Source of the DNA: Steroidobacteraceae bacterium
Lineage (GTDB): Bacteria; Pseudomonadota; Gammaproteobacteria; Steroidobacterales; Steroidobacteraceae
Direction of reading: 5' to 3'
Length of the DNA stretch: 64,000 nt
Assembly (NCBI GenBank): GCA_036393055.1
Contig: DASVWT010000308.1
Coordinates: 5,657 to 69,656, forward strand
In this document: in pieces, positions 8,264 to 55,889 of the stretch
Layout: every line of letters begins with the position of its first letter
Position numbering within the stretch: the first letter of the stretch is position 1
Position numbers and translations under genes: made by a program
The notes under the pieces: generated by a model
The model's database searches: none
What the model was told of the DNA's origin: nothing
Seen by the model: only the letters and a program-made list of their open reading frames with translations

Positions 8264-8297
8264 GTGGCTCGGCCTGCTGTCGTGGGGGTGCGATATT

Positions 8298-15047: not shown

Positions 15048-15062
15048 TTCGAGGAGGGCCGG

Positions 15063-29870: not shown

Positions 29871-29910
29871 TTGTCCGGACAACTATTGGGGAGAATCGCA
29901 AGGCTGTCAA
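29871..29910 (-). promoter_or_regulatory. sigma70-like promoter with perfect palindromic operator TTGTCCGGACAA at the start site
   Basis: Minus strand: TTGACA (29910-29905), 17 nt, AATAGT (29887-29882), immediately followed by TTGTCCGGACAA (29882-29871). A half-site TGTCCGG repeats 3 nt further downstream. Confidence 0.55.
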
Positions 29911-34717: not shown

Positions 34718-34849
34718 GAGCGCTTGAATCCCCCAGGCATGCCTAGCGTGTACAGGACCCGGATCGAGTGAAATTTTCAGCCGCAAATTCGCCCAGACGT
34801 TGCCGCGGGGTCTGATGCCCGTCCGTCGGCAAGCACGCCCGCCGCACCA

Positions 34850-36394: not shown

Positions 36395-36410
36395 TTGTTC
36401 GGACATTATG
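36395..36410 (-). promoter_or_regulatory. -10-like CATAAT fused to operator variant (ATGTCCGAACAA)
   Basis: The minus strand reads CATAATGTCCGAACAAC, the same layout as TATAATGTCCGGACAAC at 48994-49010. One mismatch to the palindrome. About 70 nt upstream of the ALDH start. Confidence 0.45.
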
Positions 36411-41023: not shown

Positions 41024-42396
41024 GACAGGAGCTCCCTCGGATCGGCGATCGCGCCGGCGATGGCGCTCGCCGCGACCGTCTCCGGGCTCGCAATGTGGGT
41101 ACGGATCCCTGGCCCCTGGCGTCCCTCGAAGTTGCGGTTGGTGGAGGAAATGACGCGCGACCCGGGCCGGAAGCTCTCCCCGCCGGCGTAGAAGCACATC
41201 GAGCAGCCGCTCTCGCGCCACTCGAAGCCGGCAGCCTGAAACACGCGATCGAGACCTTCGGCCTCCGCGGCGCGTTTCACTGCGGATGATCCGGGAACGC
41301 AGATGGCGGCCACGCCCGGCGCAACGTGCCGCCCTGCGAGAAGCGCGGCCGCGCGGCGCAGATCGGACAGCCGGCTGTTGGTGCAGCTACCGATGAATGC
41401 CGCATCGATCGGGATGCCGCGCAGCGCCTGCCCGGCGCGCAAGCCCATGTAGGCGAGAGGCCGCTGCGCGGCGGCCGGCGGTACGACGCCGGTCACCCCG
41501 GTCGACTGCGCCGGTGACACTCCCCAGCTCACCATCGGCTCCACCGCGGCGGCATCCAGGGTGATCTCCTCATCGAAGCGGGCGCCGGGATCGCTGGCGA
41601 GTCGCCGCCACTGCGCTACGGCCGCGCTCCAGGAGGCACCCTGCGGCGCGTACCGGCGGCCCTGCAGGTACGCAAAGGCAACATCGTCCGGCGCGATCAG
41701 CGCGGTCATCGCCGAGAATTCGCTGGCAAGATTGCACAGTGTCATGCGCGCTTCCATGTCGAGCGCCGCGACCGCCTCGCCGGCGAACTCGAGCGCACAC
41801 CCCTTGGCACCGCCCGCCCCGTAGCGGGCGATCAGAGCAAGTGCCAGATCCTTCGCGGTCACGCCCGCTGCGAGGCGCCCGGAGAGAATGACGCGCAGCG
41901 AGCGCGGGCGGCGCACACGCAGCGTGCCCGTAGCCAGCGCATGCTCCGCCTCCGAGGAGCCGATGCCCCAGGCCAGAGCGCCGAAGGCGCCCTGAGTGCA
42001 GGTATGGCTGTCCGGTGCGACCAGAGTACAGCCCGGCAACACGATGCCGAGCTCCGGTGAGATCACGTGCATGATCCCCTGATCCGGGTCGGTCACATCG
42101 TACAGCGTCAATCCCGCCTCCAACGCGGCGCGGCGGGTCTCGGAGATGAACGCCTGGCCGCCAGGCATGAGCGTGCGATCGCCCCGCCCGGGCCTGGTAT
42201 CGACGATGTGATCCATCACGCAGAAGGCGCGGCGCGGATCGGCCACGCGCCGCCCCGAGGCCGCCAGGCTGCCGAGCGCGACGGCACCCATGCGCTCGTG
42301 CAGGAAGATGCGGTCGATCGCGAGCAACGCGGCGCCGTCCGACAGTTCGGCGATGAGGTGCCGTCGCCAGATCTTCTCGAGGAGCGACTCGGTCAG
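41020..42396 (-). CDS. aconitase-family dehydratase large subunit (LeuC-like)
   Basis: ORF track 41020..42657 extends far into the upstream gene. The conserved N-terminus (LTESLLEKIWRRH..IDRIFLHE) begins at CTG 42396-42394, which has GGAG 8 nt upstream and overlaps the upstream stop (CTGA). APDSHTCTQGAFG, GSCTNSRLSDL, ESGCSMC. Confidence 0.75.
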   Translation of the reverse strand: MTESLLEKIWRRHLIAELSDGAALLAIDRIFLHERMGAVALGSLAASGRRVADPRRAFCVMDHIVDTRPGRGDRTLMPGGQAFISETRRAALEAGLTLYDVTDPDQGIMHVISPELGIVLPGCTLVAPDSHTCTQGAFGALAWGIGSSEAEHALATGTLRVRRPRSLRVILSGRLAAGVTAKDLALALIARYGAGGAKGCALEFAGEAVAALDMEARMTLCNLASEFSAMTALIAPDDVAFAYLQGRRYAPQGASWSAAVAQWRRLASDPGARFDEEITLDAAAVEPMVSWGVSPAQSTGVTGVVPPAAAQRPLAYMGLRAGQALRGIPIDAAFIGSCTNSRLSDLRRAAALLAGRHVAPGVAAICVPGSSAVKRAAEAEGLDRVFQAAGFEWRESGCSMCFYAGGESFRPGSRVISSTNRNFEGRQGPGIRTHIASPETVAASAIAGAIADPRELLS

Positions 42397-42887
42397 GCCC
42401 GCTGCTCCATTTCTTTCTCGACGGCGCGCCAGTCGCGTGTCACCAGGCGCTCCTCGATCGCGGTGCGTGTCTCGAGGCGTCCCTTGCGGATCCAATGCCA
42501 GGTGCGGCAGCGCGTGGCGCCGTCGTCCGCGATCTGGATCATCTCGTAGAGGTACAGCCCCGGATCGCCCTGCCGCTCCCAGTAGAGCATGATGGTGCGG
42601 CGCGCGGCGTCGAGGCCGACCTCGGCCGCCCAGCCCTTGATGAGCTCGTTGTCCCACCAGATGCGGCCGTCGGCGTAGGTGGCGGGGAAGTCCCGGATCT
42701 CCACGCGGCCGTCATCCCACGTGTAGTAGTTGGTCTGGTGATAGGGGTGCCCCTGCTCGGGCATCCGGCAGAGCAGCCGCGAGCGATGGGCGTCGATCTG
42801 CTTTCCCGCCGCATCGTAGTAGGTGTACACGCCGTCCCAGACTCCCTCGTGGCGTGCCAGCAGGGGCATGCTGTCGCGAATTCCCAT
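42393..42887 (-). CDS. hypothetical protein (164 aa), first gene of LeuCD-like operon
   Basis: MGIRDSMPLLARHEGVWDGVYTYYDAAGKQIDAHRSRLLCRMP..YHQTNYYTWDDGR..; GGGAG RBS. Trp/Tyr-rich, possibly a beta-barrel-type small protein; family not identified. Confidence 0.65.
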   Translation of the reverse strand: MGIRDSMPLLARHEGVWDGVYTYYDAAGKQIDAHRSRLLCRMPEQGHPYHQTNYYTWDDGRVEIRDFPATYADGRIWWDNELIKGWAAEVGLDAARRTIMLYWERQGDPGLYLYEMIQIADDGATRCRTWHWIRKGRLETRTAIEERLVTRDWRAVEKEMEQRA

Positions 42888-42930: not shown

Positions 42931-42949
42931 TGTTATACTGTCAGGACAA
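42931..42949 (+). promoter_or_regulatory. TG-extended -10 (TGtTATACT) fused to operator variant CTGTCAGGACAA
   Basis: TGTTATACTGTCAGGACAA. The operator (42938-42949) has one core mismatch. It lies 45 nt upstream of the ALDH ATG 42994, in the divergent region shared with the LeuCD-like operon. Confidence 0.45.
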
Positions 42950-42993: not shown

Positions 42994-44412
42994 ATGCACG
43001 TCAGAAATCCCCGTACCGGGAAGGATGATTTTCAGTTCGAGCCCGCCGGTCCCGCGGCGCTCGATGCGATCGCGTCCCGGCTGCGCAGCGCCCAGCCGCA
43101 GTGGGCGGCACGGACGCCACAGCGGCGGGCGGAGGCACTGCTGCGGTGGGCCGCGGCGCTCGAGAGCCACGCCGCGCGGATCATCGGCGCCCTGGAGAGC
43201 GACACCGGCCGCCGCGCCCTCTCGCGGATCGAGCTGGCAAGCGTCGCGGGCCTGAGCCGCCGCTGGGCCGCGCGTGCGCCAACGCTGATCGAGGCACAGA
43301 GCCGCAGCGGCTGCGCGACCTCGCAGCCGGGTATCACGACCTCGACGCAGCTCGTCCCCTACCCGCTGGTCGGCATCATCAGTCCCTGGAATTTTCCGCT
43401 GATCCTCTCGCTGATCGATGCCGTGCCGGCCCTGGCCGCGGGCTGTGCGGTGATGATCAAGCCGTCGGAGATCGCACCGCGATTCGTCGAGCCGCTCGAG
43501 GCGGCTACCCGTCAGGTACCCGAGGTCGCGGACGTACTCGCCTTCGTGCCGGGGGATGCGGCCACAGGCGCCGCATTGATCGATCGGGTCGACTTCGTCT
43601 GCTTCACCGGCTCCGTCGCAACCGGACGCAAGGTCGCGGCCGCCGCCGCCGCCGCGTTCATCCCCGCCAGCCTGGAACTCGGCGGCAAGGATCCGATGAT
43701 CGTGATGGCCAGCGCAGACCCGCACCATGCGGCACAGATCGCGCTGCGGGCCGGCGTCGTCAACACCGGCCAGGCCTGTCAATCCATCGAGTGTGTCCTC
43801 GTGGCCCGTGCGATCTCCGGTCCCTTCATTGCGGCATTGACCGAAGCCGCCGACCGAGTGCGGCTCAACCATCCTGACATCGGCAGCGGCGACATCGGGC
43901 CCTTCATCTCGCAGCGACAGGCGCAAATCGTCGCGGCGCAGATCGCGGATGCGCTCGCCAAGGGCGCGCGAGTGCTGAGCGGCGGCGAGGTCCTGAGCCT
44001 CGGCGGCGGCCTCTATCTGAAACCGACGGTAATCTGCGACGTGACGAGCGGGATGCGGGTGCTGGAGGAGGAGACGTTCGGCCCCATCATCCCGGTGATC
44101 CCGTTCGACACTCTGGAGGAAGCCGTGCGGCTCGCCAACCGGGGCCGTTACGGGCTCTCCGCGGCCGTGCTCGCCGCAACCGCCGAGGAAGCCGAGGCGG
44201 TTGCGAGTCAGTTGCAGGTCGGGGCGGTCTCCATCAATGACGGCAGCCTCACCGCGCTGGTGTGGGAAGCCGAAAAAACGAGCTTCAAGGACTCAGGGCT
44301 CGGCCCCTCGCGCATGGGGGATTGTGGCCTCACGCGCTTCCTGCGCCGGCGCGTGCTCATCCGTCAGTCCGGCGCCCCCGCGCCGCTGGCAGCGTATGCG
44401 GAGAAGGGTTGA
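42994..44412 (+). CDS. aldehyde dehydrogenase (paralog of 34850-36325)
   Basis: ORF track 42823..44412, start trimmed to ATG 42994 (GGAAGG 8 nt upstream; MHVRNPRTGKDDF). PWNFPL, LELGGKDPMIV, NTGQACQSIE, EETFGPI. Confidence 0.85.
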   Translation: MHVRNPRTGKDDFQFEPAGPAALDAIASRLRSAQPQWAARTPQRRAEALLRWAAALESHAARIIGALESDTGRRALSRIELASVAGLSRRWAARAPTLIEAQSRSGCATSQPGITTSTQLVPYPLVGIISPWNFPLILSLIDAVPALAAGCAVMIKPSEIAPRFVEPLEAATRQVPEVADVLAFVPGDAATGAALIDRVDFVCFTGSVATGRKVAAAAAAAFIPASLELGGKDPMIVMASADPHHAAQIALRAGVVNTGQACQSIECVLVARAISGPFIAALTEAADRVRLNHPDIGSGDIGPFISQRQAQIVAAQIADALAKGARVLSGGEVLSLGGGLYLKPTVICDVTSGMRVLEEETFGPIIPVIPFDTLEEAVRLANRGRYGLSAAVLAATAEEAEAVASQLQVGAVSINDGSLTALVWEAEKTSFKDSGLGPSRMGDCGLTRFLRRRVLIRQSGAPAPLAAYAEKG

Positions 44413-44419: not shown

Positions 44420-44782
44420 TCAGGATTTCGCCAGGTCCTCGCGGATGTCCTCGATCGGGCGCTCCTGCGCCGCCGCCGCGAGCGCCTCCGCCTCCTGCTG
44501 CAGGCCGCGCATGATCCTGGCGATGTACTCGCGGGTGAGATTGCCGCGCTCCAGCGCAGCCGCCTGATCCGGCGCATACGACTCGATGTCGGCGCGCGTC
44601 AGCGATCCCCGGGTCTCGAGCAGGCGCTCGACGGTGTCGAGCCGCTCGCGCAGCACGGATACCTCGCCGACCAGAGCCATCAGCATCGACAGCATGCGGT
44701 CGAGTGCCGGATCCTCGAAGTACTGCGGGCGGCGCCCCTTGGCCTTGGCGTTCGCGCGGACCATCCAGTCGATGTCGCTCAT
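44420..44782 (-). CDS. small helical protein, partner family copy D (120 aa)
   Basis: ORF track 44420..44827, start trimmed to ATG 44782, which overlaps the methyltransferase stop (ATGA). Core LSMLMALVGEVSVLRERLDTVERLLETRGSLTRADIESYAP..REYIARIMRGL. Confidence 0.65.
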   Translation of the reverse strand: MSDIDWMVRANAKAKGRRPQYFEDPALDRMLSMLMALVGEVSVLRERLDTVERLLETRGSLTRADIESYAPDQAAALERGNLTREYIARIMRGLQQEAEALAAAAQERPIEDIREDLAKS

Positions 44783-45993
44783 GAGGCGTTGGCCTCCCGC
44801 CCTTTCCATGCGCCATACGCGTGCCATGCGGCGGCACGGCCGTAATCTTCCGCGCCCTTATCCGGCGCCCCGGGGAAGATGCGCTTGTCCACGACGGCCG
44901 TGACTCCCGTGGTGAACAGCTCCTGCGGGCGGAAGCCGCTCTCGATCATGAGCTTCTTCAGATCCAACGAGTGCATCGCCGACCAGAAGGGCTCGTTGTT
45001 GTTGAAAGCGTCCCAATCCCGAATGAACTGCTCATAGAGCGGCATGTCGGCAGTGTACTGCGGCTGCTCCAGATGCAGCGTGAGGCCGCCCGGCGCGAGC
45101 ACGCGATACAGCTCGTTCAGGATGCGCGGCAGCGCCTTGGCGCTCAGCTCGTGCAGGAACATGGTGGTCTGGACCCAGTCGAAGTATCCCTCCGGCCAGC
45201 GCGAGAGGTCCTCGGCGTTGGCCTGCAGAAAGGTCAGATTGCGAACGCCCAGCGACCGCGCGCGCGCATGGCCGTAGCGCAGGATCGGCGCCGCAGTATC
45301 GAGTGCGATCACTTCGCTCTGCGGGAACGCCTGGGCGAGCGGCACGGCGTTGTGGCCGATCGTGCAGCCGACATCGAGAATCCTCTTGGGAGTCCACCCC
45401 GGGCGCTCGCGGCCGATCCAGGCCACGAGGGCCTGTCCACCGCCGTCCGACAGCGCGCCGAGCCCGCCGGCGGTGGTCGCGAACATTCCACAGTCGTAGT
45501 TGGCTCCGGCCGATACATCGCCCGCACGCTCCTCGCCCGCATAGCTGCCGGGCATGCAGTGGATGTCGACGGCCGCCTGGTAATGCGGCGTCGACACGGC
45601 AGGATCGAGCTTCAGCGTATCGGCCCCGTCGTTGAGGGCCCGCGCCCTGGCATCGAGGTCATCGAGCTGACGCAGGACCATGGCCCTGCCGTTCTGCTGC
45701 CGCATCTCCATGGAGTTGCGCTTGAGCGCGGACCAAAGGCGATGGAACGGGTCTGCATTCATCGCGCGGCGGATCTCGAAGCGATCGCGCGGTCCGCGCC
45801 CGTGCTCTTTCTCGAAGCCGGGCAGCACCCGCTGCCGGTACGCGGCGGCGTTGCCGCGCCCCAGCGGTCCCGACAGGTACTTGTTGAGGTTGGCGAGGAA
45901 GTTGAACCGTGCCGTTTCATCGTGGCGCGGAGTCGGAAACATGCCATGGCGCGCGACCGCGGTGTAGGGCGGCGGAATGTCTGCTTGTTTCAT
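44779..45993 (-). CDS. SAM-dependent methyltransferase-like protein with N-terminal extension (paralog 4 of 4)
   Basis: ORF track 44779..46449, start trimmed to ATG 45993 (MKQADIPPPY), just after the upstream TAA. RILDVGCTIGHNA, VIALDTAA, FDWVQTTMFLHEL, LAPGG, NNNEPFW. N-terminal HGRGPRDRFEIRRAM. Confidence 0.8.
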   Translation of the reverse strand: MKQADIPPPYTAVARHGMFPTPRHDETARFNFLANLNKYLSGPLGRGNAAAYRQRVLPGFEKEHGRGPRDRFEIRRAMNADPFHRLWSALKRNSMEMRQQNGRAMVLRQLDDLDARARALNDGADTLKLDPAVSTPHYQAAVDIHCMPGSYAGEERAGDVSAGANYDCGMFATTAGGLGALSDGGGQALVAWIGRERPGWTPKRILDVGCTIGHNAVPLAQAFPQSEVIALDTAAPILRYGHARARSLGVRNLTFLQANAEDLSRWPEGYFDWVQTTMFLHELSAKALPRILNELYRVLAPGGLTLHLEQPQYTADMPLYEQFIRDWDAFNNNEPFWSAMHSLDLKKLMIESGFRPQELFTTGVTAVVDKRIFPGAPDKGAEDYGRAAAWHAYGAWKGREANAS

Positions 45994-45995
45994 GA

Positions 45996-47555
45996 TTACA
46001 GCCCCAGGCTTCCGGGATTCATGAGATGGCTCGGGTCCACCGCCGCCTTCAGCGCCCGCAGGATTTCCCAGGCTTGCGGGTCGAGGGCCTCCCGCAGCGG
46101 ATAGGTGCGCCCGATCTGAAAGTGCGCCGCCCCGAGCGAATCGACGATCTGGATGATGGAGTCGCGTAGACGTGTAACCAACTCTCGTGACGCCTCGTTG
46201 GCTGGAAACCGGGTGAGCTTCGCAAGGTGCGCGGGCTCCACGGTGCGGCGATGCAGCTCCTCGAGAGCATCGGGCCAGTAGAATACGGGCTCGACGACGC
46301 AGGCCGACGGACTGATGGCGGCGAACAGGGCGCCTGCACTCACGCCGTGGCGCTCCATTTCTCCGGCCTCGCGCGCAAAGAGGTCTTGGATCCGCCGCCA
46401 GCCTTCCGCCAGCCGGCCGTGCGGCAACAGGCCGTGCACGGGCAGCCATCGCTCGCCCGCGGGGCCGATCATGGAGTTCAGCGGCGGGAAGGGGTGCGCT
46501 CTGGCCACTTTCGGGATGGTGTTCTCGACCGGGGCTCCGCCTGCCTCGGTGACGAGACGATCGACGGCGGCGAGATCCGCGGCAACGGCGCTCTCATGCC
46601 TGCCCTCGCAGACGACATGAAGCGAGAACGATCCGGCTTCCAGGAACGAGCGCCCCGCGGCAACCACCTTGACCCCTTCTTTCAAGCCCTTCCAGGCGGA
46701 TCCCTGTGCCTTGACGACTGCCAGCAGGGAGCGCGCGTCGGCGGCAATGCTCTCGCGCTTCAACCGCTGCGACTGCAGGTAGGGATCGAAGCCGAAGCAT
46801 TCCGCAGCGAGGCGCTCGCGCGCCACGGCGCTCATGGCGGCAAAGAATCCTTCGGCCGTCGGAAGAGTATACGAGCCGTAAGCGAAGGCCTCCGCCTCGC
46901 GCACCAGTTGCAGCGTCACCGTCGCTTTGATGCCTAGTGCGCCGGTATCGGACGCGAACAACCCCGTGATGTCCGGACCGAAGGGACGGAAGAAGCCGCA
47001 CCCCGTGCTCAACACCCGGCCGTTCGCCAACACGACCTCGAAGCTCAGCGCGCCGTCGACGAGCACACCGTCGCGGGCGCCCCAGAACACGCCGTTCTGA
47101 CTCATCCCGCCGCCGATGGTCGCCTTCAATCCCGAGAGAGTCCCCCAGGCGAGCGCGCGCAGACGGTGCGGCTCGAGCGCGCGGCGCAGATCGGCCCAGG
47201 TGCAGCCCGCCTCCACTCTGGCGGTGAGGTTGACCGGGTCGACATCGAGCACGCGATTCATCGCACTCATGTCGATCAGGAGCGCACCGGGCGAGGAAGC
47301 CAGATAGCCGCCGGTATAGCTGGCGCCACCGCCGCGAGGAATCACCGCGATCCCGCGCGCGGTCGCTGCGGCCACGCCGCGCGCGAGCATCTGGGTGTCG
47401 GTCGGCCGGAAGACTGCCAGGAGCGGCGCGCCCTTCTGGAAGACATCGTGCTCGAAGTAGGCGAGCTCGGCCGCCTCTCTCGAGAGGGCGGTTTCACCCA
47501 CCGCCTGCGCGACCGTGGCAAGGCTGTCGTCGCGGACCATGCTGACGCCGCTCAT
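45996..47555 (-). CDS. FAD-linked oxidase (PCMH/GlcD-like FAD-binding domain)
   Basis: ORF track 45996..47966, start trimmed to ATG 47555 (ATGA overlap with the MFS stop). VIPRGGGASYTGG, then GCTWADL, then a C-terminal oxidase domain. 519 aa. Confidence 0.8.
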   Translation of the reverse strand: MSGVSMVRDDSLATVAQAVGETALSREAAELAYFEHDVFQKGAPLLAVFRPTDTQMLARGVAAATARGIAVIPRGGGASYTGGYLASSPGALLIDMSAMNRVLDVDPVNLTARVEAGCTWADLRRALEPHRLRALAWGTLSGLKATIGGGMSQNGVFWGARDGVLVDGALSFEVVLANGRVLSTGCGFFRPFGPDITGLFASDTGALGIKATVTLQLVREAEAFAYGSYTLPTAEGFFAAMSAVARERLAAECFGFDPYLQSQRLKRESIAADARSLLAVVKAQGSAWKGLKEGVKVVAAGRSFLEAGSFSLHVVCEGRHESAVAADLAAVDRLVTEAGGAPVENTIPKVARAHPFPPLNSMIGPAGERWLPVHGLLPHGRLAEGWRRIQDLFAREAGEMERHGVSAGALFAAISPSACVVEPVFYWPDALEELHRRTVEPAHLAKLTRFPANEASRELVTRLRDSIIQIVDSLGAAHFQIGRTYPLREALDPQAWEILRALKAAVDPSHLMNPGSLGL

Positions 47556-48829
47556 TCCGGCAGCGGTGCCGGCGTCGGCCGCAGGGACTGCATCGGCTCG
47601 CGCTCGAAGGCCGGATAACGCCCGAGCAGCAGCAGTGCGACACCGGTGATCGCGAACAGCAGCAACGCGATCATCAGGATCTCGTCGTAGCGGCCGGTCC
47701 GATCGCGCACCACTCCATAGGCCACCGGCGACAAGGACGCGCCGATCCCGAAAGCCAGATAGAGCAGTCCATAGATGCGCCCATAATGCGCCATTCCGAA
47801 GTACTTGGCGGCGAAGTAGGCGATGACGTCCGACTCCGCTCCGGCCGAGAAGGCGATCAGGAACACGCCCACGACGACCCGCGTCACGCTGGGCGTGGTG
47901 CCGGTCAGCAGCCAGCACCCGAGTCCCGAGAGCAGCAGCGCCGGACAGGCGACCGCCGGCGCCCACACTCGATCGAAGAGGTAGCCGATGAAGAGACGGG
48001 AGGCCAGGATCCCCGTGGCGATGATCCCGAGAGCGCTGGCGGCGAACCGCGGCGTGAATCCGTGCAGCTCCACGATCTCTGCGATGTGGATGTGCGCACC
48101 CGCATACGCGAAGGCGATCAGAAAAACCGCGGCGAGCAGCAGCCAGAAGCGGTAGCCGCGCAATGCCTGTGCGAGCGTGATGCCCGCAACCTGGCCGTGC
48201 TCATCGCAGATGCCGGCGGGCCGCTCCTGCGGCTTCGGATCGCGAAACCACGCGAAGCAGATCGGCAGGGCGAGCAGGAGCGGTAGCAGGGCGACCACCG
48301 GGAAGGCCAGCCGCCAGCCGCCCCAACCGATCGCCGATTGCGCCAGCTGCGGCACCACGAACGCCGCCGCGCTGGTGCCGAGGAGCATGATCGCGAGCGC
48401 CAGGCCGCGGCGGCGAAAGAACCAGATGCTGATGGCCCTGCTGAAGGTGACCGGCGTGGAGCCGATGCCCACGATGCCGAGCAGCGCCCAGAGCGCCCAG
48501 TATCCACCGACCGACCGGGGGGTGAAATAGAGGGACGCGAACACCACGGTGAACGCGACCAGTGAGGCCAGCGCCACCACACGGACGCCGAAGCGGTCCG
48601 CGAGGCCCCCGAACACCGGCGCGAGCAACGAGGCGATGATCCCGAAGATCATCATGCCGGCACTGATGTCGGCGAAGTCCCAGCCCAGCTTGGCATGGAT
48701 CGGGCCCATGACGAGCGGCAGGACGTTGAAGGGAACCGGCGAGGCGCCGCAGGCCACCCCGACGACGGCTGCCGTCAGCGGCTTCCACCCGAGGGCGAAC
48801 TCCCCCCTGCGCGCAGCCTGCGCGCTCAA
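47552..48829 (-). CDS. MFS transporter (paralog of 28512-29795)
   Basis: ORF track 47552..48925 begins at a TTG inside the operator. The start is reassigned to TTG 48829, which overlaps the leader-uORF stop (TTGA). ..GWKPLTAAVVGVACGASPVPFNVLPLVMGP.. Confidence 0.8.
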   Translation of the reverse strand: MSAQAARRGEFALGWKPLTAAVVGVACGASPVPFNVLPLVMGPIHAKLGWDFADISAGMMIFGIIASLLAPVFGGLADRFGVRVVALASLVAFTVVFASLYFTPRSVGGYWALWALLGIVGIGSTPVTFSRAISIWFFRRRGLALAIMLLGTSAAAFVVPQLAQSAIGWGGWRLAFPVVALLPLLLALPICFAWFRDPKPQERPAGICDEHGQVAGITLAQALRGYRFWLLLAAVFLIAFAYAGAHIHIAEIVELHGFTPRFAASALGIIATGILASRLFIGYLFDRVWAPAVACPALLLSGLGCWLLTGTTPSVTRVVVGVFLIAFSAGAESDVIAYFAAKYFGMAHYGRIYGLLYLAFGIGASLSPVAYGVVRDRTGRYDEILMIALLLFAITGVALLLLGRYPAFEREPMQSLRPTPAPLPE

Positions 48830-48858
48830 GGCCGCCACCCGTCTGCCGGTCGATGCAT
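48826..48858 (-). CDS. leader uORF (MHRPADGWRP, 10 codons)
   Basis: GAGGA (48869-48865), 6 nt, then ATG 48858. Reads ATGCATCGACCGGCAGACGGGTGGCGGCCTTGA. Its TGA overlaps the TTG of the MFS gene by 4 nt. Confidence 0.45.
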   Translation of the reverse strand: MHRPADGWRP

Positions 48859-48913: not shown

Positions 48914-48953
48914 ATGTCCGGACAACTCTCGGCCGAATCCGCACGACTGTCAA
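48914..48953 (-). promoter_or_regulatory. sigma70-like promoter with palindromic operator at the start site (MFS/oxidase/methyltransferase operon)
   Basis: Minus strand: TTGACA (48953-48948), 17 nt, GAGAGT (48930-48925), then TTGTCCGGACAT (48925-48914). Same layout as 29871-29910. Confidence 0.5.
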
Positions 48954-48993
48954 GCCCCGCGGTCACGGCGATGGACGCGTCGCGGATTGCCGC

Positions 48994-49009
48994 TATAATG
49001 TCCGGACAA
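48994..49009 (+). promoter_or_regulatory. consensus -10 TATAAT fused to palindromic operator (CitE-like operon)
   Basis: TATAATGTCCGGACAA: TATAAT at 48994-48999, operator ATGTCCGGACAA at 48998-49009. Lies 21 nt before ATG 49030 (GAGGA RBS in between). Confidence 0.55.
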
Positions 49010-49029: not shown

Positions 49030-49854
49030 ATGAGTGTTGTGGACGGGCTGGCGAGCCTGCTGTTCGTGCCCGGCAGCCGGCCGGACCGCTTCGGCAAGGC
49101 GCTTTCGAGCGGCGCCGATGCCGTATGCATCGACCTGGAGGATGGGGTTGCCGATGCCGCCAAGGCGGAGGCGCGGGCCGCCGCCCTGGAGGCGCTCGCG
49201 GACCGCCCGCCGCGCGTCTGTCTGCGCATCAACGGGCTACGCACCCGCACCGGACTGCAGGATCTGGTGGAGCTGGCCTCCCGCGGCCACCGGCCCGAGC
49301 TGCTGTTGGTTCCCAAGGTCGAGAGCGCCGTCGATGTCGAGATCGTGTCGGCGGTGTCCGGCCTGTCGTGCATCGTGCCGCTGATCGAGACGCCGCGCGG
49401 CCTGGCCGCCGCGGCCGAGATCGCCGCCGCTCCGGCGGTCGCCGCCATGATGTTCGGCGGCGGCGATTTCGCGGCGGAGCTCGGCGTGCGGGTCGAGTGG
49501 GAGCCGCTGCGCACGGCCCGGGGCCTGTTCATACTGGCGTGCGCGCAGGCCGGAAAGCTGGCGATCGACGTCCCGTACCTGGCGCTCGAGGACCCCGCCG
49601 GCCTCGCGGCCGAAGCCAAGGCAGCCAAGGCCATCGGCTTCGGCGCCAAAGCTGCGATTCATCCGGCGCAGGTCGCGCCCATCCACGCCGTGCTCCGCCC
49701 GACCGAAGCCGAAATCGCCGAAGCCGAGGAGGCGCAGCGCGCCTTCGAGGCCGCCGGCGGCGGCGCGATCCGCTTCAAGGGGCGCCTGCTCGATGAGCCG
49801 ATCATGCGCCGCTACCGAAGAATTCTCGCACAGCAGAGGAATCAACATGCGTGA
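49030..49854 (+). CDS. HpcH/CitE-like acyl-CoA lyase (citrate lyase beta / citramalyl- or malyl-CoA lyase family)
   Basis: ORF track 48853..49854, start trimmed to ATG 49030. LLFVPGSRPDRFGKALSSGADAVCIDLEDGV, LLLVPKVES, PLIETPRG, FGGGDFAAELG. Confidence 0.85.
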   Translation: MSVVDGLASLLFVPGSRPDRFGKALSSGADAVCIDLEDGVADAAKAEARAAALEALADRPPRVCLRINGLRTRTGLQDLVELASRGHRPELLLVPKVESAVDVEIVSAVSGLSCIVPLIETPRGLAAAAEIAAAPAVAAMMFGGGDFAAELGVRVEWEPLRTARGLFILACAQAGKLAIDVPYLALEDPAGLAAEAKAAKAIGFGAKAAIHPAQVAPIHAVLRPTEAEIAEAEEAQRAFEAAGGGAIRFKGRLLDEPIMRRYRRILAQQRNQHA

Positions 49855-50356
49855 AGGCAGCATCGAAGTCGGTCCGCGGCGTTTTCGCGAGACGTTTGGC
49901 CGTTATTACGAAGACTTCGTGGCGGGTGACGTTTACGAGCATCGTCCGGGACGCACGATCACGGACGCTGACAATGTGTGGTTTACCCTGCTCACCATGA
50001 ACACTCACCCGGCCCATTTCGACTACGAGTTCGCGAAGAAGACCGAGTTCGGCAAGCCCATCGTCTGCTCGCCGCTCACCGTCGCCTTGATGGTGGGCAT
50101 GTCCGTTTCGGACGTGAGTCAGAAAGCCGTCGCGAATCTCGGCTGGGAGTCGATCAAGCTCACCCAGCCGCTCTTTCCGGGCGACACCCTCTACGCCGAG
50201 AGCGAGGTGCTCGAGAAGCGGGAATCCCGCTCTCGCCCCGAGCAGGGCCTGGTGACCGTGAAGACCACGGGAAAGAACCAGCACGGCGAGATCGTATGCA
50301 CGTTCAACCGGACGATGCTGATCTGGAAGCGGGGCTTCGGCCCTGCAGACGGCTGA
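49847..50356 (+). CDS. MaoC-like (hot-dog fold) enoyl-CoA hydratase/dehydratase
   Basis: ORF track 49793..50356, start trimmed to ATG 49847 (AGAGGA RBS). FVAGDVYEHRPGRTITDADNVWFTLLTMNTHPAHFD, GDTLYAESEVLEKRES. Confidence 0.8.
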   Translation: MREGSIEVGPRRFRETFGRYYEDFVAGDVYEHRPGRTITDADNVWFTLLTMNTHPAHFDYEFAKKTEFGKPIVCSPLTVALMVGMSVSDVSQKAVANLGWESIKLTQPLFPGDTLYAESEVLEKRESRSRPEQGLVTVKTTGKNQHGEIVCTFNRTMLIWKRGFGPADG

Positions 50357-50368
50357 TCAGAACGACCC

Positions 50369-51547
50369 ATGGATACACAAACCAAGCCGCGGACGCGGAC
50401 CATCGATCCGGACGACGAGCGCGCCCTGCTCGATGCAATCGACCGCTGGCTCGAGCGCGACGTCGCGCCGGTCGTCATGCGCCACGATCACGGCGATATC
50501 TGGCCGGCGGAGCTGGTGGCGCAAATGGCCGACATGGGTTTGTTCGGAGCGACCATCTCCCGCGAGTACGGTGGACTCGGACTTCCGGCGACCACCTATG
50601 CCACGCTCATCGCGCGCATGTCATCGATATGGATGGCGCTCACCGGGATCCTCAACTCTCACCTCATCATGGCCGCTGCCGTGGAGCGTTTCGGCACCGA
50701 GGCGCAGAGGTCGCAATGGTTGCCGCGCTTTGCCAGCGGGGAGCTGCGCGGGGGCCTCGCGCTGACGGAGCCGGATGCGGGCACCGACCTGCAGGCCATC
50801 CGTACGACGGCAACCCTCGCTGGCGACGAGTACGTCATCAACGGCACGAAGACCTGGATCTCCAACGGCATCCAGGGACACTGCTTCGCGTTGCTGGTCA
50901 AGACCGATCCGGCCACCGATCCGCCGCGCAAAGGCATGAGCTTCTTCATCGCTCCCAAGGGGCCCGGCTTCAGCGTCGGCAGGAAGATCGAGAAGCTCGG
51001 CTACAAGGGCATCGACAGCGCGGAGCTGATCTTCGATCAGTACCGCGTTCCCGCAGCGAACCTGATCGGCGGCGTCGAGGGCCAGGGTTTCTACCAGGCG
51101 ACCGGCGGCCTCGAGCTCGGCCGGATCAACGTGGCAGCGCGCGGCGTCGGCCTCGCCGACGGCTCGCTGCGGCTCGCAACCGCCTATGCCCAGGTCCGCA
51201 AGACCATGGGCAAGCCCATCGCCCAGCATCAGGCCATCCAGCTCAAGCTCGGCGAAATGGTGACCCGCGCCCGCGCCGCGCGCCTGCTGACACTCGATGC
51301 GGCGGAAGCCTACGACCGCGGCGAGCGGTGCGACCTGGAGGCGGGAGCGGCGAAGTACTTCGCCTCCGAGGCGGCGGTCCGCAATTCCGAGGAGGCCATG
51401 CGTATCTTCGGCGGCTACAGCTACTCGAAGGAATTCGAGATCGAGCGCTTCTATCGCGATGCGCTCCTCATGTGCATCGGCGAGGGCACCAACGAGATCC
51501 AGCGGATGATCATCGCCCGGCAATGGCTCAAGAGAAATCCCGTCTGA
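50369..51547 (+). CDS. acyl-CoA dehydrogenase
   Basis: 392 aa. EYGGLGL, LTEPDAGTDL, GTKTWISNG, GGYSYSKEFEIERFYRDA, IGEGTNEIQRMIIAR. Confidence 0.9.
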   Translation: MDTQTKPRTRTIDPDDERALLDAIDRWLERDVAPVVMRHDHGDIWPAELVAQMADMGLFGATISREYGGLGLPATTYATLIARMSSIWMALTGILNSHLIMAAAVERFGTEAQRSQWLPRFASGELRGGLALTEPDAGTDLQAIRTTATLAGDEYVINGTKTWISNGIQGHCFALLVKTDPATDPPRKGMSFFIAPKGPGFSVGRKIEKLGYKGIDSAELIFDQYRVPAANLIGGVEGQGFYQATGGLELGRINVAARGVGLADGSLRLATAYAQVRKTMGKPIAQHQAIQLKLGEMVTRARAARLLTLDAAEAYDRGERCDLEAGAAKYFASEAAVRNSEEAMRIFGGYSYSKEFEIERFYRDALLMCIGEGTNEIQRMIIARQWLKRNPV

Positions 51548-52749
51548 TGGCTCACCCCCCTGTCCGGCTGCCGCTCGCCGGCGTGCGCATTCTCTCCGCC
51601 GAGCAATACGGCGCCGCTCCGTATGGCACGATGCTGCTCGCCCAGCTCGGCGCGGATGTGATCAAGATCGAGCCCCCGGCGGGCGGCGACAGTGCGCGCG
51701 CAGTGGGCCCGCATTATCTGAGCGGCGGCGACAGTCTGTTCTTCCAGACATTCAACCTCAACAAAAGATCGTTGACGCTGGACCTGACATCCGACGGTGG
51801 CCGCGCCGTGCTCAAGCGTCTCGCCCGGGATGCGCATGCGATCGTCAACAACCTGCGCGGCGATCTTCCGGGACGGCTCGGGCTGACCTACGAGGCACTG
51901 GCGGACGACAACCCCGCGATCGTATGCGCGCACCTCTCCGCCTACGGGCGCGACAACCCGCGGGCGCGCTGGCCGGGTTACGACTACCTGATGCAGGCGG
52001 AGGCGGGCTTCATGAGCCTCACCGGCGAGCCCGACGGCCCGCCCGCCCGCTTCGGCCTCTCCATGGTGGATTTCATGACCGGCGCCATGATGGCGGTCGG
52101 CTTGCTGGCGGCGCTGACCGAGGCCCGCAGCACCGGCAAGGGGCGCGACGTCGATGTCGACCTGCTGGCCACCGCCTTCCACCAGACCAGTTATCCGGCG
52201 ATCTGGTACCTCAATGAGGGAGACATCACGCGGCGGGTGGCGCGCTCCGCGCACCCCTCCGTCGTGCCGAGCCAGCTGTTCCGCACGGCCGACGGCTGGG
52301 TGTTCGTGATGGCGCAACTGCCGAAGTTCTGGACCGTGCTCCTGCAGCGCATCTCGCGCCCGGAGCTCGCCCAGGACGATCGCTTCCGCACGCCCGCGGA
52401 TCGGCTCGCCAATCGCGGAGCGCTCACGGCGGTGCTGGATGGTATATTCCAACAGAACCCCACGAGTTACTGGGTCGAGCAGCTCGGCGGTTACGTCCCG
52501 GTCGCTCCGGTGCATACGCTCGATCAGGCGCTCGACAGCGCGTTTCTGCAGGCATCCGGAATGATCGAGCCGATCCGTCATCCGGATGGGCGCGAGCTGC
52601 GCGTGTTGAGCAACCCGATTCGTCTCGACGGGCGCTGGCTCGCCAATCGCGCGGCGCCGCGCCTGGGGGAGCATAGCGCGGCGATACTCGCCGAAGCCGG
52701 CCTCGATGCCGCGGCGATCGACATGCTGCGCGAGAAGGGCGTGGTGTAG
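51547..52749 (+). CDS. family III (CaiB/BaiF) CoA-transferase
   Basis: C-terminal part of ORF 49978..52749; start ATG 51547 (TGATG overlap). LAGVRILSAEQYGAAPYGTMLLAQLGADVIKIEPPAGGD; C-terminal ..GEHSAAILAEAGLDAAAIDMLREKGVV. Confidence 0.9.
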   Translation: MAHPPVRLPLAGVRILSAEQYGAAPYGTMLLAQLGADVIKIEPPAGGDSARAVGPHYLSGGDSLFFQTFNLNKRSLTLDLTSDGGRAVLKRLARDAHAIVNNLRGDLPGRLGLTYEALADDNPAIVCAHLSAYGRDNPRARWPGYDYLMQAEAGFMSLTGEPDGPPARFGLSMVDFMTGAMMAVGLLAALTEARSTGKGRDVDVDLLATAFHQTSYPAIWYLNEGDITRRVARSAHPSVVPSQLFRTADGWVFVMAQLPKFWTVLLQRISRPELAQDDRFRTPADRLANRGALTAVLDGIFQQNPTSYWVEQLGGYVPVAPVHTLDQALDSAFLQASGMIEPIRHPDGRELRVLSNPIRLDGRWLANRAAPRLGEHSAAILAEAGLDAAAIDMLREKGVV

Positions 52750-52751
52750 CG

Positions 52752-53840
52752 ATGCACTTGCGTGGCATCCAGGTAATCGACGCGACCCTGTTCCTGCCCG
52801 GACCGATGCTGACGGTCATGATGGCCGACCAGGGCGCGGAAGTCGTCAAGGTGGAGCCGCCCGCGGGCGATCCGGTCCGCAGCCAAGGGCCCTTCGAGGC
52901 GGGTCAGTCGATCTGGTTCCGCAGCCTCAACCGTGGCAAGCGCAGCGTGACGCTGGACCTGAAGGCCGAGGAGGGGCGCTCTGCCCTCTGGAGCCTGCTT
53001 GCCGATGCCGATGTTTTCGTGGAGGGATTCCGGCCGGGCGCAATGGCGCGGCTGGGGTTCGGTTACGAGAGTGTCGCTGCGCGCTGCCCGCGCCTCATTT
53101 ACTGCTCGATCTCGGCCTTCGGACAACACGGGCCGCTCGCAAGCCACCCGGCGCACGATCTGGCGGTGCAGGCGCTCACCGGATTCCTCTCCGTGAACGA
53201 CGGCGCCGATGGAACGCCGGTCGTCCCGGGTGCCCCGGCAGCCGACATGGCCGCGGGACTGACGGCGCTCTCAGGCGTCCTGATGGCGCTCCTCGGCCGG
53301 GAGCGGACGGGCAGAGGAGACTACCTCGACGTGGCGATGCTCGATTCGCTGTTGCCCTGGTGCGCACATGTCGTCGGCGAGGCGATCGCCGGCGGATCGC
53401 CGCCACGGTCGTCAGCGCAACGGTCCCTCGGGGGCGCAGCTTTCTATCAGGTCTACCGCACCGCGGATGGCAAGCACGTCGTGCTCGCCGGCAGAGAAGC
53501 CAAGTTCGCCGCCGAACTGCTCGGCGCGCTCGGGCGGCCGGACCTCCTCCCCCTCGCCAGTGCGCCGGCGGGAGAGGCGCAGCGGCCCCTCACGGAGTTC
53601 CTGCGGACAACATTCGTGCAACGCACCCGCGATGAATGGACTGCCTGGTTCGCCGGCAGGAATGTCGCCTTCGCGCCGGTGCTCGATTTCCGCGAGGCGC
53701 TGGCTCAACCGCACATTGCGCAGCGGCGGTTGCTCGTCGAATCGGGAGGAGCGCACCACATCGCGCCCCCGTTGCGGTTCGCCTCCGCCCCCGACTGGTC
53801 GCCGCGGCAGGCGCCAGAGCTGGCGAAACCCGGGACTTGA
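52752..53840 (+). CDS. family III (CaiB/BaiF) CoA-transferase
   Basis: 362 aa. LRGIQVIDATLFLPGPMLTVMMADQGAEVVKVEPPAGDP. Lies 2 nt after the preceding CoA-transferase gene. Confidence 0.9.
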   Translation: MHLRGIQVIDATLFLPGPMLTVMMADQGAEVVKVEPPAGDPVRSQGPFEAGQSIWFRSLNRGKRSVTLDLKAEEGRSALWSLLADADVFVEGFRPGAMARLGFGYESVAARCPRLIYCSISAFGQHGPLASHPAHDLAVQALTGFLSVNDGADGTPVVPGAPAADMAAGLTALSGVLMALLGRERTGRGDYLDVAMLDSLLPWCAHVVGEAIAGGSPPRSSAQRSLGGAAFYQVYRTADGKHVVLAGREAKFAAELLGALGRPDLLPLASAPAGEAQRPLTEFLRTTFVQRTRDEWTAWFAGRNVAFAPVLDFREALAQPHIAQRRLLVESGGAHHIAPPLRFASAPDWSPRQAPELAKPGT

Positions 53841-53844: not shown

Positions 53845-54603
53845 TCAGCCGCGAGCCTCGACATGCATCGAGTACACGAAGCGATCGCCCGGATGGTGGC
53901 TGGAGGAGAGCTCCACGATGCGGCCGCGGCCATCGAGATAACAGCGCAGAATGCGCAGGCAAGGGGTCCCGCGGGGGACGCCCAGGCTCCTCGCGACCGG
54001 CTGCGTCGCCGCCACGGCCTGGATATCCTGCGTCACGCGGGTGACCTTGACACCGCCCAACTGCTCGAGCTGACGGAATATCGCTGCACCCCCCGGCTGC
54101 ACCTGACGCGCCGCCTCGCCGAGATCCGGATGGACGTAGGCAACCGTCACGGCAATGGGCCTGGCCTGGCCGCGCCGGAATCGCAACCCGCGGAAATGAA
54201 ACCAGCCCGCCCCCGGCTTGGCCCCGATCTGAGTGGCCAGCGAGCGCGGCAGCGGCACCGGGCCCTTCGGGGTGAACTGAAAGGTGCTGTCGCGGGCGTA
54301 TTGCAGGATCTCGTCGATGTTGGAGAGAGGCTGATGCAGCGCCCCGCCGCGGGCGGACGCGGGCTGCACGTACGTTCCCGATCCCCGGCGGCGGTGGATC
54401 AGGCCTTCCGCCTGCAGCGCCCGCAGCGCCTCGCGCACGGTGAAGCGGCTGAGCCCGTAGCGCCTGCAGAGCTCGCTCTCGGTCGGAAGCTGACTGGGAT
54501 CGGAGCCGCCGCGCAGGATCATGGCCCGCAATCGCTCGGCCAGCTCCTGGTAGCGCGGCTTGCGCGCGAAATTCGCTGTCGGCTCGTATGCACTGCGCGC
54601 CAA
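53845..54603 (-). CDS. GntR-family transcriptional regulator (HutC/UTRA type)
   Basis: ORF track 53845..54663. Start set to TTG 54603 (GGAGGG 9 nt upstream), which avoids overlap with the divergent PrpD gene; the start is uncertain. LPTESELCRRYGLSRFTVREALRALQAEGLIHRRRGSGTYV. Confidence 0.8.
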   Translation of the reverse strand: MARSAYEPTANFARKPRYQELAERLRAMILRGGSDPSQLPTESELCRRYGLSRFTVREALRALQAEGLIHRRRGSGTYVQPASARGGALHQPLSNIDEILQYARDSTFQFTPKGPVPLPRSLATQIGAKPGAGWFHFRGLRFRRGQARPIAVTVAYVHPDLGEAARQVQPGGAAIFRQLEQLGGVKVTRVTQDIQAVAATQPVARSLGVPRGTPCLRILRCYLDGRGRIVELSSSHHPGDRFVYSMHVEARG

Positions 54604-54650
54604 GTCGGTGGCCCTCCGGTCAGGCTGAAGCGGGGAGTCGATGGGAAACC

Positions 54651-55889
54651 ATGAGCGTCGCAAAGAATAGCCTAACCGAGCGGCTGGTGGCGCATCTGCA
54701 GCGCCCCGTGCCGGAGGCGGTGCGCCAGCGTGCCCGCCGGCACCTGCTCGACTGGCTGGGTTGTGTCGCCTGCGCGCGCGCCTCGGAGCTGTCCGGACAT
54801 CTTGCGGGCGAGGCCACTATGTCCCGGGCGGCGTGGCTCGGCAATCTGATGGAAATGGACGACGTGCATCGCACCGCCCTGCTGCATCCCGGACCGGTGG
54901 TCTGGCCGTCCGTGCTGGTCCACTCGGGGCTTTCGCTCGATGAGACGCTGGCCGCCGCGGTGCGCGGCTACGAGGCGATGATCGCCGTCGGATCGATGCT
55001 GGACGCGCATCACTATGCTCATTGGCACAACACTGCCACTGCCGGCGTCTTCGGCGCCGCTGCCGCCGCGGCGAGCGCGCTCGGGGCGACCCCCGAGCAG
55101 ATGGTGAGCGCCCTGGGCCTCGCCGGGTCGGTGGCCGGAGGGCTCTGGCAGATGCGGCACGAGCCTGTGATGGCGAAGGCCTGGCATGTGGCCCATGCCG
55201 TCAGCGCCGGCACAGCGGCGGCGAACCACGCCTGCCGCGGAATCACTGGACCACGCTACGTCCTCGAGGGCCCGCAAGGGCTGTTGGCTGCCACCTGCCG
55301 GGAGCCTCGTCCGCTCGCGCTCGGGGCAGACTGGCGGATGGCCGAAGTCAGCTTCAAGCCCTGGGGCGCCTGCCGGCATACCCACCCGGCGATTACCGCC
55401 GCCCTGGAGCTGCGCGCGCGCGGCGCTCTGTCGGGCGAGATCATCGTGCGCACCTATCGCGACGCGCTGGTGTTCTGCGACCGCCCGGAGCCCCGAACAT
55501 CCGCCGAGGCCAAATTCTCTCTGCAACATGCGGTGGCCGTGGTCGTCGCCCGCGGGGAGCCGCGACTCGAGGACTTCGAGCCCGCCGCAATCGAGGCGCT
55601 GCAACGTTGGCGCCAGGCGGTCACGGTCGCCGAGGAGCCCGCATTGACCGCGTCATATCCAGCGCATTTTGGCGCACGGGTCTCGACAGCGACCGCCGAG
55701 GCGCTGGCCGCGGACGCGCTGGGCGATCCGGAGCGGCCCTTGTCGGAAGCCGGGGTTGTCGCCAAGGCGCGCGCATTGATGGAGTGGGGGCGCATCGGCT
55801 CCGCCGACACGCAGCGCACGATCGGCGCCGTTCTGCAGGGGAACTCGACGAGCACCATCACCGCAGCCCTGGAGTCCTGGTTTCCATGA
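54651..55889 (+). CDS. MmgE/PrpD-family protein (paralog 1)
   Basis: ORF track 54588..55889, start trimmed to ATG 54651 (MSVAKNSLTERLVAHL..ARRHLLDWLGCVACA). ..MDDVHRTALLHPGPVVWP.., ..SFKPWGACRHTHP.. Confidence 0.8.
   Translation: MSVAKNSLTERLVAHLQRPVPEAVRQRARRHLLDWLGCVACARASELSGHLAGEATMSRAAWLGNLMEMDDVHRTALLHPGPVVWPSVLVHSGLSLDETLAAAVRGYEAMIAVGSMLDAHHYAHWHNTATAGVFGAAAAAASALGATPEQMVSALGLAGSVAGGLWQMRHEPVMAKAWHVAHAVSAGTAAANHACRGITGPRYVLEGPQGLLAATCREPRPLALGADWRMAEVSFKPWGACRHTHPAITAALELRARGALSGEIIVRTYRDALVFCDRPEPRTSAEAKFSLQHAVAVVVARGEPRLEDFEPAAIEALQRWRQAVTVAEEPALTASYPAHFGARVSTATAEALAADALGDPERPLSEAGVVAKARALMEWGRIGSADTQRTIGAVLQGNSTSTITAALESWFP

Follow-up and report, generated by a model that had tools for sequence, protein, structure and literature searches.

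A palindromic candidate operator of a HutC-type GntR regulator in front of uptake and catabolic operons of a Steroidobacteraceae bacterium

The 12-bp palindrome TTGTCCGGACAA and its near-identical copies recur at promoters within a stretch of 64,000 nucleotides from a Steroidobacteraceae bacterium (GenBank assembly GCA_036393055.1, contig DASVWT010000308.1, positions 5,657 to 69,656 of the forward strand), which is called the window here. The palindrome is probably the operator of the HutC-type GntR protein G3, encoded in the same window, and its likely function is to repress a regulon of several catabolic and uptake operons. An initial annotation of the window had already proposed a repressor-type operator that is bound by a HutC-type GntR protein and joins several operons. 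This proposal is strongly supported by conservation of the site across genomes and by the fact that the protein MscA binds the exact 12-mer. We infer that G3 is the binder, because gene and motif strictly co-occur, that binding leads to repression and that an effector releases the protein.

All seven copies of the palindrome in the initial annotation were recovered by a direct check of the sequence, with the same positions and letters. An eighth strong copy, CTGTCCGGACAT at 54789-54800, had been overlooked. When two or fewer mismatches are allowed, there are 9 matches to TTGTCCGGACAA in the 64-kb window versus 1.16 expected, and as many as 9 were reached in 0/100 dinucleotide-preserving shuffles. 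Likewise, the 10-bp core TGTCCGGACA has 11 matches at no more than one mismatch versus 1.73 expected. The variant palindrome TGTTCGAACA shows no enrichment in the window. A 16-bp weight matrix was trained solely on sites from other genomes and then run over the window, where it picks exactly eight sites with scores of 14.1-25.0 bits. In shuffled sequence, 0.3 matches of at least 12 bits are expected per window. One weak additional match (10.7 bits) is located at 7354, within a coding region. The eight sites are listed here with their matrix scores.

8332-8343: TTGTCCGGACAT, 23.4 bits; in the 179-bp gap between the CN-hydrolase/G1/TonB-receptor operon (minus strand, start 8263) and a conserved uncharacterised gene (plus strand, start ~8443)
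28187-28198: ATGTCCGGACAA, 21.2 bits; 114 bp upstream of the TonB-dependent receptor gene 25712-28073 (minus strand)
29871-29882: O(MFS1), the perfect TTGTCCGGACAA, 20.8 bits; heads a minus-strand gene for one of two paralogous transporters of the major facilitator superfamily (MFS)
36395-36406: TTGTTCGGACAT, 15.9 bits; flanked by the aldehyde dehydrogenase (ALDH) gene ALDH2 (minus strand, start 36325) and by DUF1838-like and hydrolase genes (plus strand)
42938-42949: CTGTCAGGACAA, 14.3 bits; between the DUF3598-LeuCD-HMGL-CoA-transferase operon (minus strand, start 42887) and ALDH3 (plus strand, start 42994)
48914-48925: O(MFS2), ATGTCCGGACAA, 25.0 bits; heads the minus-strand MFS2 operon
48998-49009: O(CitE), ATGTCCGGACAA, 21.8 bits; 21 bp before the CitE-like start codon at 49030, the orthologous position being kept in 28 of 29 loci
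54789-54800: the eighth site, CTGTCCGGACAT, 14.1 bits; in codons 47-50 of PrpD1, at a distance of 186 bp upstream from the start of G3

The centres of O(MFS2) and O(CitE) are 84 bp apart. The copies had been described as exclusively intergenic, which is correct for the seven sites listed at the time once gene starts are refined, and is not correct for the eighth, which lies in coding DNA. Given our own estimate that 15% of the window is non-coding, the chance that at least seven of eight sites fall into non-coding DNA is approximately 1e-5.

In its full form the palindrome spans 16 bp, AtTTGTCCGGACAAaT, and its half-site is TTGTCC. There are 54 unique 20-mers among 91 perfect-core sites from other genomes, and these yield the symmetric consensus A(0.88) T(0.65) T(0.79) TGTCCGGACA A A T. 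By this consensus the core is GT-N4-AC, and not GT-N6-AC as had been claimed. The motif is an inverted repeat of some 12-16 bp around a GT-N4-AC core, as is characteristic of HutC-type operators, and judged by its sequence it has the operator architecture of HutC, NagR and DasR. It does not have the T-N11-A form of a LysR site, because it reads T-N10-A.

Three of the sites coincide with promoters predicted by a consensus scan.

48972-48999, plus strand: predicted sigma-70-type promoter of the CitE-like operon, TGGACG-16-TATAAT
48925-48953, minus strand: predicted promoter of the MFS2 operon, TTGACA-17-GAGAGT, which ends exactly at the start of site 48914
29882-29910, minus strand: predicted MFS1 promoter, TTGACA-17-AATAGT, which ends at the start of site 29871

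The last two bases of the TATAAT in the CitE promoter are also the first two bases of site 48998, and a GAGGA ribosome-binding site precedes the CitE-like start codon. For two more sites the promoter element was recognized by eye. Site 42938 overlaps an extended -10-like sequence, TGtTATACT, on the plus strand, and a CATAAT abuts site 36395 on the minus strand, which is the strand of ALDH2. The LeuCD/HMGL operon shares site 42938, and no promoter was read on its strand. The suggestion that five sites abut a -10-like hexamer therefore stands for 48998, 48914 and 29871 by the scan and for 42938 and 36395 by eye, with no convincing case at 8332 and 28187. Overlap with the predicted core promoter between -35 and +1, as is typical of repressor operators, is found at these five positions and also at the orthologous CitE promoters of other genomes. 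The regions upstream of the paralogous MFS1 and MFS2 genes have diverged from each other save for GCTTGACAG and AGTTGTCCGGACA, which correspond to the -35 element and the operator. This retention of two elements amounts to a putative footprint within one genome.

The initial annotation had called the regulon local. On the contrary, the site, its presumed regulator and the regulated genes are conserved in both Sphingomonadales and Caulobacterales. When genomes were scanned with the CitE-like protein of the window, 80 loci were returned, the best of them 64% identical. With few exceptions, the loci from Sphingomonadales and Caulobacterales have the palindrome 40-60 bp before the CitE orthologue, and their genomes range from 49 to 69% G+C. 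In Sphingomonadales the CitE promoter reads cTTGACTttagat-TTGTCCGGACAAA-ttgtgaag, wherein the operator fills the spacer and reaches the -10 element. In Caulobacterales it reads TTGACC-17-CAAAAT and overlaps ATGTCCGGACATT.

Synteny searches with tblastn reveal one conserved cluster, which includes the uncharacterised genes u8647 and u24452. On one strand it carries genes for a small protein, a methyltransferase, a CN-hydrolase, an FAD oxidase, an MFS transporter and a TonB receptor. On the other strand it carries u23724, CitE, MaoC, an acyl-CoA dehydrogenase (ACAD) and two CoA-transferases, followed by G3, which is divergent from PrpD, a PaaK-like ligase and an amidase. There are 85 sites at one or no mismatch in the 29 loci with a G3 orthologue, and only 5 of the 85 lie in gene bodies. 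Sites are found upstream of the genes that come first in their operons, namely CitE (28/29), u23724 (17/17), the TonB receptor (13/13) and u24452 (7/8). Orthologues of u8647, the plus-strand gene at site 8332, have a site in 6 of 11 loci. No site was found in the 29 loci upstream of the internal genes MaoC, ACAD and CoA-transferase. Thus, the same site stands before orthologous operons in several genomes, alongside the gene for the regulator, as is to be expected of a regulon.

A different kind of box was observed in a Caulobacteraceae locus (L038) that has neither G3 nor the standard motif. The symmetric variant GTTGTTCGAACATT is located there at ~9975-9990, just upstream of an HMGL-CitE-MaoC-ACAD operon, and could be bound by a related regulator. 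Site 36395 of the window (TTGTTCGGACAT) is a half-variant of this box.

Metagenome contigs were also scanned for the exact 16-mer, without regard to CitE. At least 120 stretches matched, and 80 of these were taken as loci. Among the matches listed, 24 of the 31 loci with a G+C content of at least 0.56 have homologues of the window regulon beside the site, and the contexts are CitE-MaoC-ACAD, u23724 with a TonB receptor, hydrolase-DUF3598-LeuC-LeuD-HMGL-CoA-transferase, ALDH2, methyltransferase with DUF1838, and PrpD. The motif is located upstream of an operon of the LeuCD-HMGL-CoA-transferase type in four of the loci listed (L089, L124, L142 and L165). These contexts directly corroborate site 42938, which was beyond the reach of a scan centred on CitE. 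Homologues of ALDH2 and DUF1838 occur in the site-bearing loci L127, L139 and L165, and among the matches listed a site lies directly upstream only for DUF1838 in L127. This provides partial support for site 36395.

The 16-mer also has another setting. In about 30 metagenome loci of low G+C content (e.g. L088, L091, L105 and L153, several of them from human gut) it forms the centre of a larger element, CGGACAAATTGAATTTGTCCGGACAAATTGTCCGG, which consists of repeated GGACAAAT units, recurs between similar flanks in numerous contigs and has no connection with the window. This element resembles the terminus or attachment site of a mobile element, or else another protein-binding array. In addition, a metagenome contig of 1695 bp and 38% G+C (L110) contains tandem units of ~41 bp, each with (A)TTTGTCCGGACAAA, in at least 21 copies that have no relation to the regulon genes.

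Three HutC-type GntR genes had been recognized in the window, and Pfam searches agree, since both a GntR and a UTRA domain were found in each of the three proteins. A LysR gene was considered as well.

6243-7061, minus strand: G1, GntR and UTRA domains
14102-14995, minus strand: G2, GntR and UTRA domains
53845-54663, minus strand: open reading frame (ORF) of G3, GntR winged helix-turn-helix and UTRA domains; the probable start is the TTG at 54603 (53845-54603)
30122-31072, plus strand: LysR gene

The sole GntR gene in the motif-bearing loci is the orthologue of G3, which is always located between the second CoA-transferase and PrpD. Its identity to G3 is 50-66% in Sphingomonadales and 37% in Caulobacterales. 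When only loci complete enough to judge are counted, at least one perfect 10-bp core is present in 26 of 26 loci with G3 (70 cores) versus 0 of 32 loci without it (Fisher's exact test, 4.5e-17). Among the loci without the motif are some from alphaproteobacteria, for example L027 and L038, in which CitE-MaoC-ACAD is retained and G3 is missing. Because of this co-occurrence, the palindrome is assigned to G3.

G3 has the domains of the HutC subfamily, with matches to PF00392 (E 1.4e-18, above the gathering score) and to the UTRA domain PF07702 (E 4.6e-20), and it aligns over its full length to the structures of NagR/YvoA and DasR. It belongs to no named equivalog, as its scores against the NCBIfam models for HutC, PhnF, NagR, Rv0792c and others all fall far below the cutoff (e.g. 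96 versus 220 bits for HutC). By sequence, then, G3 is an unnamed member of the HutC subfamily. There are more than 1100 homologues at E <=1e-20, and those listed with a source name are all annotated only as 'GntR family transcriptional regulator'.

The characterised proteins most useful for comparison are NagR (YvoA) of Bacillus subtilis and DasR of Streptomyces coelicolor, which share with G3 the make-up of a GntR winged helix-turn-helix and a UTRA domain. They are also the best sequence matches to G3 among structures in the Protein Data Bank (NagR/YvoA, 4u0v/2wv0, E 4e-19; DasR, E 6e-14). Both act as dimers on a palindrome of ~16 bp with a GT-N4-AC core, as is proposed for G3. The kinship is nevertheless distant. 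The central pair of the operator is CG here instead of TA, and the genes regulated here are not amino-sugar genes. The half-site of the DasR operator dre is TGGTCT (the consensus is absent from the text of the DasR paper), versus TTGTCC here. A listed example of a HutC operator is TGGTCTATACCA (PMC2018728). In the structure of NagR with DNA, Arg48 reads G-4, Arg38 reads G-5 and Gly69 of the wing contacts the minor groove at -7 (PMC4333415). G3 and its orthologues retain the equivalents of Arg48 and Gly69. At the position of Arg38, however, G3 has Ser and its orthologues have Ser, Thr, Leu or His, and the operator has G at -4 and T at -5. The residues of G3 and the bases of its presumed operator are thus consistent with the recognition mode of the family.

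The initial annotation had pointed to G1, placed at 6243-7034, as an autoregulating regulator, and one alternative is indeed that G1 is the cognate protein and controls its own operon through site 8332. G1 is a HutC-type protein that, like G3, lacks an equivalent of Arg38, and site 8332 is 69 bp upstream of the first gene of the G1 operon. However, it is G3 alone that travels with the motif, and orthologues of G1 (46-50% identity) are found in motif-free loci. They belong to another cluster, in which ALDH and methyltransferase genes are divergent from UbiD, TENA, SDR, GntR, DUF1838 and DctQM. Five such loci (61 kb) contain zero copies of the motif even at two mismatches, and a G1-type protein is encoded in 0 of 29 motif-rich loci. 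The G1 family is also rare, with 73 matches at E <=1e-30 compared to the more than 1100 for G3 at E <=1e-20. Moreover, the G1 operon has a distinct palindrome-like box of its own, TTGTTATAGCAA at 8296-8307, located over a -10-like TATAAC and 25 bp from site 8332. Similar boxes are found upstream of operons with G1 orthologues, namely TTGTTATAC in L084 and L085 and CATTATAGT in L081, and TTGTTATAGCAA is a candidate operator for G1. In light of these observations, it is very unlikely that G1 is the cognate regulator of the palindrome.

G2 is an unlikely regulator of the palindrome as well, as its divergent promoter does not have the motif and no motif-bearing locus has a G2-type gene. Just upstream of the amidohydrolase gene (15063) that is divergent from G2, there is a dre-like TGGTATA box, AATGGTATATGATTAGGTCATT, at ~15027-15048, a candidate for the operator of G2. 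Each of the three HutC-type regulators in the window may thus have a different box. The LysR protein (30122-31072) was rejected, given that just 3 of 29 motif-bearing loci have a LysR homologue and no site lies beside any of these homologues.

The initial annotation had found no site in the promoter of the PrpD operon. The operon does have one, as site 54789 is located in the 5' coding part of PrpD1, and relatives also carry a site nearby. The starts of G3 and PrpD1 are 47 bp apart, and the site is found 138 bp into PrpD1. In six loci (L002, L007, L010, L018, L019 and L021) a site lies in the spacer between G3 and PrpD. In L001, L003, L004 and L005 it lies inside PrpD, in codons 22-26 (~68 bp into the gene), wherein ATT GTC CGG ACA A encodes I V R T. 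At these codons A-T-R-Q or A-V-R-Q is encoded in other genomes, whose site is in the intergenic spacer. The PrpD peptide is variable at the position of the site in the window (codons 47-50). This variability and the different placement of the site in relatives rule out coding constraint as the cause of site 54789. The operator seems to have moved repeatedly around the start region of G3 and PrpD. A function of site 54789 in autoregulation of G3, or as a roadblock within PrpD, is plausible but weakly supported.

These observations suggest a mechanism in which a dimer of G3 would bind the palindrome with one winged-helix domain on each TTGTCC half-site. Sites lie on or just after the predicted -10 element and transcription start of at least five promoters, which are those of the two MFS operons, the CitE operon, an ALDH gene and ALDH2. 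Of three more sites, one is close to the TonB-receptor gene, one is close to the CN-hydrolase/G1 operon and one is within the 5' end of PrpD. Given the position of the sites on -10 and +1, bound G3 is proposed to occlude RNA polymerase and thereby to repress transcription. Presumably, a small-molecule intermediate of the encoded catabolic pathway binds to the UTRA domain, which would release G3 from the DNA. NagR likewise represses promoters for uptake and catabolism and is freed by a pathway metabolite (PMC4333415).

The precedent for a HutC-type protein on this sequence comes from MscA (MSMEG_5630/Ms5630) of Mycobacterium smegmatis. MSMEG_5630 is a protein of 245 amino acids that has been classed in the HutC subfamily of GntR proteins (PMC2018728). 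It binds box2, which is exactly TTGTCCGGACAA, as established by electrophoretic mobility shift assays and lacZ fusions (PMC11711680), and this identity provides an experimental precedent for such a protein on this 12-mer. MscA differs from G3 in that it is actinobacterial and also uses a second, different box. A search of the literature with the 10-mer returned almost exclusively p53 sites, and the sole bacterial match was MscA.

One possibility is that G3 activates transcription, or acts in both ways depending on the promoter, because MscA positively regulates its own cluster through TTGTCCGGACAA (PMC11711680) and a -35-like hexamer closely follows site 8332, an arrangement that would suit an activator. 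However, at five promoters of the window and at the conserved CitE promoter elsewhere, the site is in the spacer, the -10 element or +1, where a bound dimer should block RNA polymerase. In addition, NagR and other HutC-family members that have been characterised act as repressors (PMC4333415). Activation by G3, whether general or at some promoters, is therefore unlikely. It is less likely still that the palindrome is not a regulator site at all, and is instead a dispersed repeat, a target of restriction or methylation, or a small RNA hairpin in 5' leaders. The 16-mer does occur in the low-G+C, gut-type metagenome repeat and in the 41-bp tandem array of L110 described above, neither of which is related to the regulon, and its core contains TCCGGA, a type II site. 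Nevertheless, the motif strictly co-occurs with one regulator gene, is almost absent from coding DNA and keeps its position at orthologous promoters even as the flanks diverge, in genomes of 49-69% G+C. Its conservation spans 16 bp, which is past any 6-bp restriction site, and a 12-bp palindrome without a loop would form a stem of 4 bp at best.

Several points weigh against repression by G3 through the palindrome. The co-occurrence test is inflated by shared ancestry, and most of the loci without G3 are from other phyla. In some G3-carrying loci, such as L087 (76% identical), no site lies near G3, which indicates that autoregulation is not universal. G1 could read the T-5/G-4 half-site, and hence may cross-bind in this organism. 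All promoters discussed here are consensus predictions, there is no convincing overlapping promoter at sites 8332 and 28187, and site 8332 is located 5 bp upstream of a -35-like TTGTCG. Finally, MscA, which is controlled by Cu2+ oxidation of a cysteine, has been reported to activate a cluster of antioxidant genes (PMC11711680). Repression by G3 is still the reading that we consider probable.

Genes of the window were called by third-position G+C and Pfam, with refined start codons, as the G+C content of 67% renders ORF lists noisy. The following genes and operons surround the sites.

49030-53840, plus strand: CitE-like operon, synteny kept in relatives
49030-49854, 49793-50356 and 50369-51547, plus strand: CitE-like lyase, MaoC/mesaconyl-CoA hydratase-like protein and ACAD, respectively
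51559-52749 and 52752-53840, plus strand: two family-III CoA-transferases
44420-48838, minus strand: target operon with MFS2, FAD-linked oxidase, methyltransferase and a small uncharacterised protein (Pfam), synteny kept in relatives
28512-29795 and 47552-48838, both minus strand: the paralogous MFS genes, 61% identical to each other
38290-42887, minus strand: target operon with DUF3598-like, LeuC-like, LeuD-like, HMGL-like and CoA-transferase genes (Pfam and metagenome contexts)
54651-59969, plus strand: operon with PrpD1 (54651-55889), PrpD2 (55886-57193), PaaK-like ligase and amidase, divergent from G3; the amidase is followed by a HapK-like protein, SDR and ECH
34850-36325 (minus strand), 42994-44412 (plus strand) and ~9063-10712 (plus strand): ALDH genes
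3883-6243, 25712-28073 and 32393-34786, all minus strand: TonB receptors

The operon headed by site 8332 had been described as encoding a Tat-amidase and a receptor. The receptor is present, and by Pfam the full content is CN-hydrolase, G1, TonB receptor, FAD enzyme and a further CN-hydrolase. The last of these (1083-2222), with which the G1 operon ends, is the orthologue of the CN-hydrolase in the conserved cluster, which is located beside the methyltransferase in relatives. The TonB receptor below site 28187 is split, with the plug in ORF 27231-28073 and the barrel in ORF 25712-27472, both on the minus strand, which overlap by ~240 bp in different frames. This split is due to a frameshift, a pseudogene or an assembly error. 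The 64 kb contain many sets of paralogues, including three ALDHs, three TonB receptors, four MFS transporters, three family-III CoA-transferases, two PrpD-like proteins, two CN-hydrolases and three HutC-type regulators. There are also three methyltransferases of ~400 amino acids (10754-11971, 16546-17727 and 44779-46449).

Part of this gene content resembles that of the clusters for itaconate and other C5-dicarboxylates (Ich/Ict/Ccl type, e.g. PA0878-PA0883 of Pseudomonas aeruginosa), which are under the control of LysR-type regulators. Such clusters likewise have a CitE-like lyase, a MaoC-type hydratase, an acyl-CoA dehydrogenase, a family-III CoA-transferase and an MmgE/PrpD protein. To this set the cluster of the window adds TonB receptors, MFS transporters, a methyltransferase, a CN-hydrolase, an FAD oxidase, a PaaK-like ligase and an amidase, and its regulator is a HutC-type GntR protein. 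In NCBIfam, no equivalog cutoff was reached by ten proteins (G3, G1 and eight uptake, methyltransferase, hydrolase, PrpD and ligase proteins), a scan that left aside the CitE-MaoC-ACAD-CoA-transferase core. A look-up of the exact protein of the CitE-like gene returned no record. Matches to the window in a plasmid collection were confined to a single gene at about 76%, and the window is hence not a known plasmid. Literature searches on itaconate, citramalyl-CoA lyase, GntR and TonB produced no match to this cluster, and no paper that describes the regulon was found in the library searched.

It is possible, and we propose it tentatively, that the operator together with G3 marks out a catabolic regulon that has not been described before and is common among Sphingomonadales and Caulobacterales. 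The substrate, which would probably bear an amide or nitrile group, would be taken up through a TonB-dependent receptor and an MFS transporter. Its processing would involve the methyltransferase, CN-hydrolase, FAD oxidase, PrpD-like enzymes, PaaK-like ligase and amidase, and the product would next enter a module of the methylsuccinyl/mesaconyl/citramalyl-CoA type (ACAD, MaoC, CitE and two CoA-transferases) and the LeuCD/HMGL module. In the window, paralogues would have enlarged this regulon, and the regulons of G1 and G2, both with a box of their own, would be interspersed with it.

The switch is of an ordinary kind and reveals no new type of regulation. It does add a data point to the recognition code of the HutC family, in that loss of an Arg38-type residue goes along with T, and not G, at operator position -5. 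The site offers a sharp, testable handle on an uncharacterised gene cluster that is conserved in many environmental alphaproteobacteria. The motif could be used to define the full regulon in complete genomes, to find its inducer and through it the substrate, and to annotate the TonB receptors and MFS transporters that belong to it.

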